A stretch of DNA of 64,000 nt, taken from NCBI GenBank assembly GCA_036679605.1, contig JAZDCZ010000291.1:26168-90167 (forward strand). Reading direction: 5' to 3'. Shown piece after piece: positions 7,307 through 60,554 of the stretch. The position numbers and the translations under genes are program-made. Source of the DNA: Gemmatimonadota bacterium (GTDB taxonomy: Bacteria; Gemmatimonadota; Gemmatimonadetes; Gemmatimonadales; GWC2-71-9). Below the pieces are notes generated by a model that worked only from the letters and a program-made list of their open reading frames with translations, made no database searches and had not been told where the DNA came from. Every line of letters begins with the position of its first letter. The stretch's first letter is position 1.

Positions 7307-7441
7307 ATGACCGAGATCACCTCCCGGCTCTCGACCGCCCTCTCCGACCGCTACCAGATCGAGCGCCGTCTCGGCGAAGGCGGAATGGTGACCGCCAATC
7401 CGATTTGGGCTGCGGGGCACCGGTGGGTCGACCGGGAGTAG
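7307..7441 (+). pseudogene. Orphan kinase head (leader ORF)
   Basis: MTEITSRLSTALSDRYQIERRLGEGGMVTA..., TAG at 7439-7441. Preceded by TCGCCA-N17-CATCTT. Confidence 0.85.
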
Positions 7442-59099: not shown

Positions 59100-59278
59100 G
59101 GAATGACAAATGACCAATGTCCAATGATCAATATCCAGTACTAATGATGTGAGTGCAGCAGCGTTGGACATTCTGCCTTGGATATTCTGCGGTTCTCATG
59201 ACCGAAATCACTTCCCAGGCACGCGGAGCACCGGACTACTTGACCAGTCTGACTAGTCCGTTTACCTTGGCCAGATGA
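59099..59278 (+). repeat. Tail remnant + heptamer spacer (copy 4) + orphan head at 59198
   Basis: GGGAATGA, heptamer repeats, then ATGACCGAAATCACTTCC. That frame ends at TGA 59276-59278, overlapping the antitoxin ATG. Confidence 0.82.
59232..59274 (+). promoter_or_regulatory. Putative leaderless sigma70 promoter with operator palindrome for vapBC
   Basis: TTGACC (59240) - 17 nt - TACCTT (59263) - 6 nt - ATG. Inverted arms CGGACTA/TAGTCCG flank the -35 box. Confidence 0.65.
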
Positions 59279-59547
59279 GAGATACCTATTCCCTCTATGA
59301 GGCCAAGGCCAAGCTGTCGGCCATCGTCCGTCAGGTCCGAGAGGGACGGCCGGTGGTGATCACTGTCCATGGTGAACCCGCCGTTGAGATCCGGCCGGTT
59401 GAGAAGACAGAAGACGGACTCGAGGCGCGGCTGGCGAGACTAGAGGAGCGCGGCGTTCTGCTTAGGCGCGATCCCGCCGCCGCGAGGCTCGCATCCGTCG
59501 CGAAGCGGCCCGGCGCGCTCGCGAGGTTCCTGGCGGAACGGGACTAA
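59275..59547 (+). CDS. Phd/YefM-family antitoxin
   Basis: YSLYEAKAKLSAIVRQV..G.PVVITVHGEPAVEIRP; stop overlaps the toxin start (TAATG). Confidence 0.85.
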   Translation: MRDTYSLYEAKAKLSAIVRQVREGRPVVITVHGEPAVEIRPVEKTEDGLEARLARLEERGVLLRRDPAAARLASVAKRPGALARFLAERD

Positions 59548-59927
59548 TGCGTGTCGCGTACGTCGACACGTCGTGTCTTGCTTCGATCGTGTTCCGTGAG
59601 CCAGAAGCCTCCGCAGTCAAGCGAAGACTCGAGCGGTTCGATGATCTCTTCTCCTCTAACCTGCTCGAGGCCGAGCTGCGCGCCGCTTGTTTGCGAGAAG
59701 GAGTGGAAAGCGACCCAGTGATTCTGTCTGCGGTCTCGTGGGTCATCCCCGAAAGGCCATTGAGCGCAGAGATCACTCGTGTGCTGGAGGCGGGGTACGT
59801 GCGCGGAGCCGACTGCTGGCACCTGGCCACTGCGCTCCTCCTGGTTGGTGAGCCCGCCGAGATCTCTTTCCTGACGCTCGATGAGCGGCAAGCGCAGGTG
59901 GCCCGAACGCTGGGGTTCCGCAAGTGA
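59547..59927 (+). CDS. vapC: PIN-domain (VapC-like) toxin
   Basis: AYVDTS, LLEAE, RGADCWHLATA, FLTLDERQ. Confidence 0.85.
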   Translation: MRVAYVDTSCLASIVFREPEASAVKRRLERFDDLFSSNLLEAELRAACLREGVESDPVILSAVSWVIPERPLSAEITRVLEAGYVRGADCWHLATALLLVGEPAEISFLTLDERQAQVARTLGFRK

Positions 59928-59930
59928 CGC

Positions 59931-60143
59931 GAGGGAACGTCCAATGTCCAATAATCAATGCCCAAGAACCAAGGATCCGTCAGCCTTGGACATTGGACGT
60001 TCTGCATTGGATATTCTGCGGTTGAGATGACTGAAATCACGGGACGCCTGAACTCCGCCCTCACCGGCCGCTATAAGATCGAACGCCGTCTTGGTGAAGG
60101 TGGCGCGAACCGCAAGGTTTCTCAGAATGGCTGCAGGGTGTGA
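59931..60143 (+). repeat. Tail remnant + heptamer spacer (copy 5) + orphan head (60027-60104)
   Basis: GAGGGAA, heptamers, then MTEITGRLNSALTGRYKIERRLGEGG followed by unrelated sequence and a stop at 60143. Confidence 0.85.
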
Positions 60144-60273
60144 TTGGTAGGAAAACGACAGCCGGAGACCAAATGACCTCCGGCTGTCAGGCGCAGCGAA
60201 CTGGCTACGCGAATTCGCACCCCGTACTTTATACTAATCAAGCGCTAGGAGCCAAGTCAATGACGGCGGTGGG

Positions 60274-60357
60274 TGCTGGCGGTCGGAGTCGAACCGACAA
60301 GGGCCGAAGCCCGACGGGGTGCGAACCCGTTGCGTTTACCAGTTTCACCACGCCAGC
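60274..60357 (-). tRNA. Class II (Leu-type body) tRNA with anticodon CGC (reads Ala codon GCG)
   Basis: GCTGGCG TG GTG AAACTGGTAAA CGC A ACGGG-TTCGCAC-CCCGT C GGGC-TTCG-GCCC TT GTCGG-TTCGACT-CCGAC CGCCAGC A. All stems pair. Confidence 0.85.
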
Positions 60358-60554
60358 ACCCGATCTCGGTAGCAACCTCTGGTAACCCGAAGGCAAGACG
60401 CACGGAGTCACACTCGTTCCGAACTGTTCTGTAGAGGATAACGACAATCTTGGAGAGTTCATCATCACTTCGACGCGTGAAGTGACACGTTTTTGCGAGT
60501 GCTTCCCTTCGAGAAGGCAGCTTTGTGGTTTTTTTCGGGACACGTCCCACAGTA

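Follow-up and report, generated by a model that had tools for sequence, protein, structure and literature searches.

The 64,000-nucleotide (nt) stretch of DNA analysed here, referred to as the window, comes from a Gemmatimonadota bacterium (contig JAZDCZ010000291.1, positions 26,168 to 90,167) and carries on its minus strand a module of about 290 bp made up of a leader, a tRNA gene with a Leu-type body and an Ala anticodon, and the gene of a predicted small RNA whose first nucleotides are complementary to the anticodon region of that tRNA. The module is almost certainly a real functional pair, and the pattern of conservation argues that the tRNA is maintained by selection as a Leu-type tRNA. 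With a probability of roughly 60%, the sequences point to an RNA-only toxin-antitoxin module in which a Leu-inserting missense tRNA would serve as the toxin. The fuller proposal -- a new protein-free toxin-antitoxin or defence class, with a missense tRNA toxin acting via the host's leucyl-tRNA synthetase (LeuRS), a self-locking leader, a small RNA antidote for the anticodon arm and a reprogrammable address, amounting to a switchable device for recoding GNN codons -- has a slightly better than even chance of being right.

The tRNA gene and its Leu-type identity

The putative toxin, an 84-nt class II tRNA, runs on the minus strand from G1 at 60357 to A73 at 60274, with its CGC anticodon (decoding GCG, Ala) at 60321-60323. 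ARAGORN called it as tRNA-Ala(CGC) at 60270-60358, and Rfam RF00005 matches 60357-60274 with 52.3 bits, the variable region carrying a 13-nt insert. The initial annotation, made from the letters of the window, had described a minus-strand cloverleaf with a Leu body, a CGC anticodon, a 4-bp variable arm, A15:U48, discriminator A and no G3:U70, all of which is borne out by both programs and by the sequence. Read directly, the latter has a 7-bp acceptor stem with C2:G71 and U3:A70, A14, G18G19, A20a, a UUCG-closed variable arm (GGGC/GCCC) and a 5-bp T stem. The fold of the locus copy also lengthens the acceptor helix by four further pairs (GGGU/ACCC), as had been proposed. An alternative 8-bp register ending in C-CCA is not upheld: CCA follows the discriminator in only 1/119 homologs, the T stem has its 5 bp, and an encoded CCA is missing from most of the genome's ordinary tRNA genes as well.

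The homologs come from loci L001-L195, which were parsed with 23 loci titled as other phyla left out; a requirement for intact stems and a length of 82-87 nt left 119 unique tRNAs, all with anticodons other than Leu. (These limits exclude the degenerate L070, which is 79 nt long and lacks the antisense tract described below.) A73 and C2:G71 are each present in 118 of the 119 and A15:U48 in 116, while G3:U70, the Ala determinant, occurs in none. The D arm is of the Leu type, with a 3-bp stem and a large loop, and the whole bacterial tRNA-Leu identity set (A73, A15:U48, G18G19, A20a, U8/A14, C2:G71 and the long variable arm) is found. The same elements are the Leu determinants of E. coli, and the anticodon is not among them (PMC9976931, PMC2377443). 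The ordinary tRNAs closest to the paralogs of this genome are those for Leu, and in a tree the paralogs group with Leu tRNAs at the modest support of 91/89, with one Ser tRNA inside the group.

A sequence error or a pseudogene, the other explanations considered for such a mixture, were ruled out by the unbroken stems, the lack of contig disagreement and the non-random anticodon of the homologs. The 7/5 cloverleaf of the locus tRNA recurs across 75 aligned homologs (75 of 97 non-redundant members), where 98.3% of its cells are paired and 18/24 pairs show double changes, so that compensatory change preserves the cloverleaf and the gene is not a drifting pseudogene. A Logan contig over 60059-60584 shows 0 differences from the window, although it probably derives from the same sample and is therefore not independent confirmation; the CGC anticodon is found again in 40/119 unique homologs. 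Ordinary tRNA-Ala (CGC, GGC, TGC), tRNA-Val and a full Leu set are all present in the genome, so that the locus tRNA is dispensable for normal decoding.

The anticodon is restricted at one position. Among 45 members found without an anticodon constraint, C36 is present in 43, the anticodons being CGC (17), CAC (11), GGC (6), AGC (3), GAC (3), TTC, CTC and GCC, with GGT twice. A metagenome scan in which a pyrimidine was forced at position 35 yielded 109 loci and 67 unique tRNAs with other anticodons, 65 of them with C36. With C36 near-fixed, decoding by the family is all but confined to GNN codons (Ala, Val, Glu, Asp, Gly). In the long open reading frames (ORFs) of this genome, Ala and Val are most often encoded by GCG and GTG, respectively. 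A tree of 108 modules requires 52 anticodon changes, a figure that comes from a short alignment without a shuffle control and is not relied on here.

A predicted small RNA facing the anticodon

Downstream of the tRNA, in tandem on the same strand and 48 nt away, lies the gene of a predicted 76-nt small RNA (60150-60225, minus strand), a putative antitoxin delimited by a promoter, a tract and a terminator that the initial annotation had overlooked. Its sigma-70-like promoter, TTGACT-N18-TAGTAT (60231-60260), was found by promoter scan and is conserved in the family. The anti-anticodon tract (60214-60225), which begins 6 nt past the -10 box and forms the first 12 nt of the RNA, is reverse-complementary without a mismatch to tRNA positions 32-43 (60314-60325); it covers the anticodon loop and the 3' strand of the stem and places the codon GCG opposite the anticodon. 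A small hairpin conserved in alignment A2 follows at 60191-60211, and an intrinsic terminator-like hairpin of 15 pairs (60189-60156) with a U tail closes the gene at 60150-60189, as seen in the terminator scan and in homologs. Rfam matched the tRNA alone and has no family for the small RNA or the leader.

The tract is a property of the family. It reaches -20 kcal/mol or lower in 114 of the 117 homologs with sufficient flank, and in 112 of those 114 the exact codon faces the anticodon; the mean pairing energy is -28.2 kcal/mol for cognate combinations vs -15.0 for non-cognate ones. The tRNA's own tract ranks first for 84/117 tRNAs and among the top three for 112/117, and tRNA positions 33-40 are paired with it in 96-100% of members. 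None of 11 true Leu tRNAs has such a tract (scores -7.5 to -15.7; L195, a misregistered family member, was left out of this control set). In the metagenome set the tract is present in 64/67, with the exact codon in 58 of the 64. The three tract-less homologs are one array tRNA, L139, and two copies on L128, for which an assembly chimera, neutralisation in trans and a true exception are the candidate explanations.

Among members whose bodies are at least 93% identical, 42 pairs differ in anticodon, and in 24 of the 25 pairs compared each tract bears the codon of its own tRNA. Shared descent alone is insufficient to account for such repeated switching with a matching change of tract, although kin are not independent of each other. 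The Leu body with an Ala anticodon stands as originally described. The anticodon is not fixed at CGC: with few exceptions it moves from one GNN codon to another, and the small RNA changes along with it.

The arms also form a short inverted repeat about 90 bp apart in the DNA, so that a role at the DNA level, as an invertible switch or as mobile-element ends, is conceivable in place of RNA pairing. At positions 28-40, however, mismatches of the G-U type number 62 vs 19 for C-A, an excess expected of pairing between RNA strands and not of a DNA repeat. No inverted form or strand-changing joint occurs in the contigs compared, nor does a recombinase occur among the neighbours (here and below, 150 flanking ORFs searched with Pfam out of 167 listed, the short ones and the last loci being left out), and an explanation at the DNA level alone is barely tenable.

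A second question is whether the tract belongs to a transcript of its own. A promoter-like site scoring at least 10 is present in 107/114 members vs 4.6% of shuffles, mostly 6-9 nt ahead of the tract, the spacing between this site and the tRNA ranging, by contrast, from 7 to 49 nt. A terminator follows the tract in 52 of 55 homologs tested (every second member, with no control), giving a median small RNA of 76 nt. The alternative is a single transcript, with the tract as part of the tRNA's 3' trailer that folds back in cis and makes a self-locked precursor, to be opened by a nuclease or a trigger RNA. On the same strand, the tract is indeed no more than some 40-80 nt beyond the tRNA, and since the sole terminator-like hairpin found downstream of the tRNA comes after it, read-through transcripts would include it. 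A promoter-like site that keeps its distance from the tract and not from the tRNA speaks against this arrangement, as do orphans that retain promoter and tract, and it is distinctly unlikely as the full explanation; cis and trans pairing may nevertheless coexist. That a separate small RNA binds the tRNA is, on these comparisons, very likely. The tract's 7 loop-facing nt are predicted to be unpaired more often than the rest (0.60 vs 0.36), and co-folding of the tRNA and small RNA of the locus copy brings a gain of 21.3 kcal/mol.

In alignment A2 the tract occurs in two registers about 3 nt apart, invading either the 5' or the 3' strand of the anticodon stem, with the locus copy using the 3' strand. 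Two Planctomycetales members, L147 and L161, are 86 nt long with a different leader and acceptor stem, and retain the promoter, the terminator and a cognate tract. Discordant tRNAs of another kind occur in L080, L085, L102, L119, L133, L170 and L190, which have a Leu-like D loop, a long variable region and an Ala anticodon (TGC or AGC) without an antisense tract; their hosts are Azospirillum (two in tandem, with CCA encoded), Dehalococcoidia, Bacteroidota, Rickettsiales, Parvibaculum, Desulfovibrionaceae and Holophagales.

Leader and precursor

Ahead of the tRNA, on the same strand, lies a 5' leader of about 70 nt (60358-60428), conserved in the family as an imperfect mirror of the tRNA 5' half. 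A putative -10 hexamer for the precursor, TATCCT (60435-60440), was recognised by alignment to a family motif, xANNNT, conserved ahead of the leader (83 of 97 leaders with a GCGG or GCGA start, no control); there is no clear -35, and the sigma-70 scan gave no flag at this site in the locus copy. The 3' trailer (60262-60273) pairs with positions -1 to -4, extending the acceptor helix, and in the family pairs with the GCGG at the leader's 5' end.

In 65 of the 97 members, picked for a recognisable leader, cells of the leader-tRNA pairing are paired in 85.5% of cases vs 80.9% with shuffled and 36-45% with slid sequences, and double changes number 142 vs 70. The minimum-energy fold includes at least 15 leader-tRNA pairs in 31/65 members vs 13/195 shuffled leaders. 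The structure was derived from the tested sequences themselves, which biases these counts toward it, and RNAalifold on the precursor alignment returned the cloverleaf with a leader-trailer helix, not the locked fold. As modelled, the leader is able to lock the precursor at the family level and does so weakly in the locus copy. A role for the leader as a second address-specific antidote was considered and found weak, the cognate leader ranking first in just 7/113.

Paralogs, relics and distribution

The genome holds 7 intact paralogs, each 84 nt long (two with CGC, one with AGC and four with CAC), and all 7 tRNAs retain their small RNA. When each of these small RNAs is set against 95 tRNA calls, the cognate tRNA comes first in all 7 cases (one arm is common to two copies); the small RNA of the locus pairs at -30.9 kcal/mol with its own tRNA vs -10.6 to -17.6 with the housekeeping tRNA-Ala(CGC). 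The variable anticodon stem would act as an address, so that several modules can coexist and the housekeeping tRNAs are spared.

There are 4 further small-RNA matches in the genome without an intact tRNA. In C275 the last bases of the tRNA remain, and C91 has no tRNA; C276:98197-99311 has the leader and the 5' quarter of the tRNA, an insert of about 900 bp with a gene, and then a promoterless small RNA, while in C401 the 3' half of the small RNA remains and nothing else of the module. The relatives L015 and L020 have likewise kept the small RNA with the tRNA lost or broken. Relics consisting of the small RNA only are the pattern predicted for a toxin and its antidote.

These relics bear as well on a reversal of the roles, in which the small RNA would be the active partner, as a codon-bearing decoy for host tRNAs or a regulator of mRNAs, and the tRNA-like RNA its sponge. 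CreT toxins reportedly act by sequestering tRNAs, and the small RNA of one paralog pairs with the host tRNA-Ala(CGC) at about -21.5 kcal/mol. But small RNAs outlive the loss of the tRNA, the tract tracks the private stem of the odd tRNA and not the host tRNAs, and a sponge has no need of the Leu identity set, which makes the reversal decidedly improbable.

A 5' pattern without an anticodon constraint matched 35 of the 401 genomes of the phylum, some of the matches being ordinary Leu-CAA genes, so the module is patchy in the phylum. A GTDB-wide pattern with purine35-C36-A37 forced gave at least 120 matches, most of them titled Gemmatimonadota among the matches listed. Short contigs of uncertain binning carry further full modules, in bins named Planctomycetales (two), Zixiibacteriota, Deltaproteobacteria and Gaiellaceae. 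Viral contigs gave 0 matches to the strict pattern and 19 to a loose one, with no antisense tract in those parsed. Tandem TTCTACCGCCC-type repeats lie on one or both sides of several modules (C91, C154, C88, C275) and are possibly linked to their spread.

Proposed mode of action

Under the favoured toxin-antitoxin reading, the upstream promoter would give a precursor of leader, tRNA and trailer, in which, in most family members, the leader is predicted to pair with the 5' half of the tRNA and the trailer, and so might slow maturation. The mature tRNA would be leucylated by the host's own LeuRS, as suggested by the Leu identity set and by the fact that LeuRS largely ignores the anticodon. By analogy, decoding of GCG would then place Leu across the proteome and leave a slowed or dead cell. 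From the second promoter would come the 76-nt small RNA, whose 5' end could pair over 12-18 nt with the anticodon loop and stem, to judge by the computed pairing and covariation, thereby blocking decoding and probably triggering decay. If the DNA were lost or transcription stopped, the small RNA would presumably disappear first and free the tRNA, with addiction, dormancy or abortive infection as the possible outcomes. That the RNAs are transcribed and processed, that the tRNA is leucylated and places Leu at GCG, that it is toxic and can be neutralised, and that the pair serves addiction or defence are all inferred.

A number of observations weigh against it. The near-fixed C36 is left unexplained by an RNA toxin-antitoxin system, and C33 replaces U33 in 34/119 homologs, which may reduce decoding. 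Members with Val anticodons (A35, C36, A73) might, from these residues, be substrates of valyl-tRNA synthetase too, and Ala-to-Leu and Val-to-Leu are mild substitutions for a toxin to make. L128, a 9-kb contig, has two apparently intact copies of leader plus tRNA about 540 bp apart with no adjacent small RNA. The computed folds of the locus copy are not all favourable: the tRNA has a minimum-energy fold other than the cloverleaf, the small RNA in its own folds back on itself with the tract paired, and in the precursor the locked fold (-53.6 kcal/mol) is favoured neither over the cloverleaf (-57.9) nor over the minimum-energy fold (-64.3), so that the leader may be decaying at this locus. Finally, no mobility gene accounts for the spread of the module.

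Some of the same observations would suit a beneficial, switchable mistranslation, in which the small RNA is an off-switch lifted under stress to allow low-level Leu at GNN codons, without addiction or suicide. The commonest targets are Ala and Val codons, where the changes are mild, C33 and the leader lock would dampen activity, and encoded mistranslation of unknown purpose does exist, in tRNA-ProX (PMC11415595). However, up to 7 copies per genome with different address stems, the small-RNA-only relics and the patchy spread fit selfish or defensive modules better, and the Glu and Asp anticodons would mean drastic substitutions; such a role is considered rather unlikely.

Comparison with known systems

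The combination of self-locking and antisense control recalls the type I system hok/Sok, where the primary transcript locks itself, is activated slowly by processing and is countered by a small antisense RNA; there, however, the antitoxin is directed at the mRNA of a peptide toxin. T-box leaders also offer a codon to a tRNA anticodon, but pair over 3-4 nt, in cis on their own mRNA, and sense charging, whereas the module pairs over 12-18 nt, invades the stem and has no gene downstream.

Two validated types of RNA-RNA toxin-antitoxin system, SdsR-RyeA and CreTA, are listed in TADB 3.0 (PMC10767807). As in these type VIII systems, toxin and antitoxin would both be RNA (PMC10767807), and by prediction the module shows one mark of the type, two adjacent RNA genes of which one is able to act on the other. 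The SdsR and RyeA genes overlap on opposite strands (PMC10767807), while those of the module lie in tandem on the same strand. CreA represses creT transcription through Cas proteins (PMC10767807); no cas family is found among the 150 flanking proteins, and the small RNA has no Rfam match. The toxin would here be a translating tRNA, with an antitoxin that targets its anticodon arm.

Allo-tRNAs share with the locus tRNA and its family a long arm and diverse anticodons discordant with identity, and are missense suppressors, as the locus tRNA would be; they killed E. coli and are often near protein toxin-antitoxin genes (PMC5389517). The initial annotation had likened the locus tRNA to them, a comparison that does not hold structurally, since allo-tRNAs are of the 8/4 or 9/3 type, with G73 or U73, an identity of Ser or Ala, and a D stem that is long, Sec-like and capped by a tetraloop (PMC5389517), whereas the locus tRNA is 7/5 with A73, a Leu body and a 3-bp D stem. 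The words 'antisense' and 'complementary' have 0 matches in the available main text of that paper, its supplements being outside the scope (PMC5389517).

In Streptomyces, tRNA-ProX and ProRSx likewise combine one body with several foreign anticodons (Ala, Asn, Thr) in an encoded mistranslation system, but with a Pro body, A34 and a co-encoded dedicated synthetase (PMC11415595); the new family has no recurring synthetase among its neighbours and has a cognate antisense RNA instead. Nematode nev-tRNAs are class II, derived from tRNA-Leu, with non-Leu anticodons, are charged with Leu and decode Gly as Leu in vitro; they differ in being eukaryotic, and an antidote RNA is absent from their description in the text available (PMC3333845). 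A review of non-canonical tRNAs has, in its available text, no match to 'antisense' (PMC7609411), and no description of such a module was met in the literature searched, subscription journals and the allo-tRNA supplements being outside its scope.

On the evidence searched, a tRNA gene accompanied by a dedicated anti-anticodon small RNA that co-evolves with it is a new architecture, and that novelty stands whatever the function turns out to be. Annotation by anticodon mislabels these genes as tRNA-Ala or tRNA-Val. If the toxin-antitoxin reading is true, SdsR-RyeA and CreTA would be joined by a third RNA-only mechanism, with a tRNA as the toxin. The module would then also offer a testable answer to the question, raised by allo-tRNAs and tRNA-ProX, of how cells tolerate a tRNA that mistranslates and what accounts for the proximity of such genes to toxin-antitoxin loci, and provide synthetic biology with a tunable codon-reassignment switch of 290 bp.

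Genomic neighbourhood

On the plus strand beside the module are, by protein family match, a Phd/YefM antitoxin and PIN toxin pair of the vapBC type (59275-59927) and, by sequence comparison, an orphan 5' head of a Ser/Thr kinase gene (60027-60104), both outside it. The module thus has an orphan kinase head on one side and, on the other, a full kinase preceded by a repeated stretch, in agreement with the context first described. The 'cassette cargo' label given to it there suits this locus only and does not extend to the family: the 150 flanking proteins include 23 Ser/Thr kinases, a few toxin-antitoxin proteins, one transposase and one arginyl-tRNA synthetase, with no integrase, recombinase, cas protein, recurring synthetase or fixed partner among them, and clustering of the ORFs around modules returned kinases and shadow frames, with no fixed partner gene.

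This bears on a function for the tRNA outside the ribosome, as a decoy for an anticodon nuclease or a leucyl donor that the small RNA would hold. Charging without a part in translation is known for some irregular tRNAs (PMC5389517), and protein toxin-antitoxin genes occasionally adjoin the modules. Yet no conserved partner enzyme is found in the 150 flanking proteins and a dedicated codon-exact blocker would be superfluous for a harmless decoy, leaving such a function very improbable.

Positions 3888-63998 of the window hold 12 Ser/Thr kinase genes together with orphan 5' heads (for example at 7307, 13017, 59197 and 60027), shared upstream repeats and cargo between them, which may represent a recombination-driven, cassette-like array. 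Elsewhere in the assembly, the 155-kb C343 has a near-complete clustered tRNA set of its own, including a 71-nt short-arm tRNA with anticodon TCA; it may be phage- or plasmid-like or belong to another organism, with UGA read-through as a possibility.
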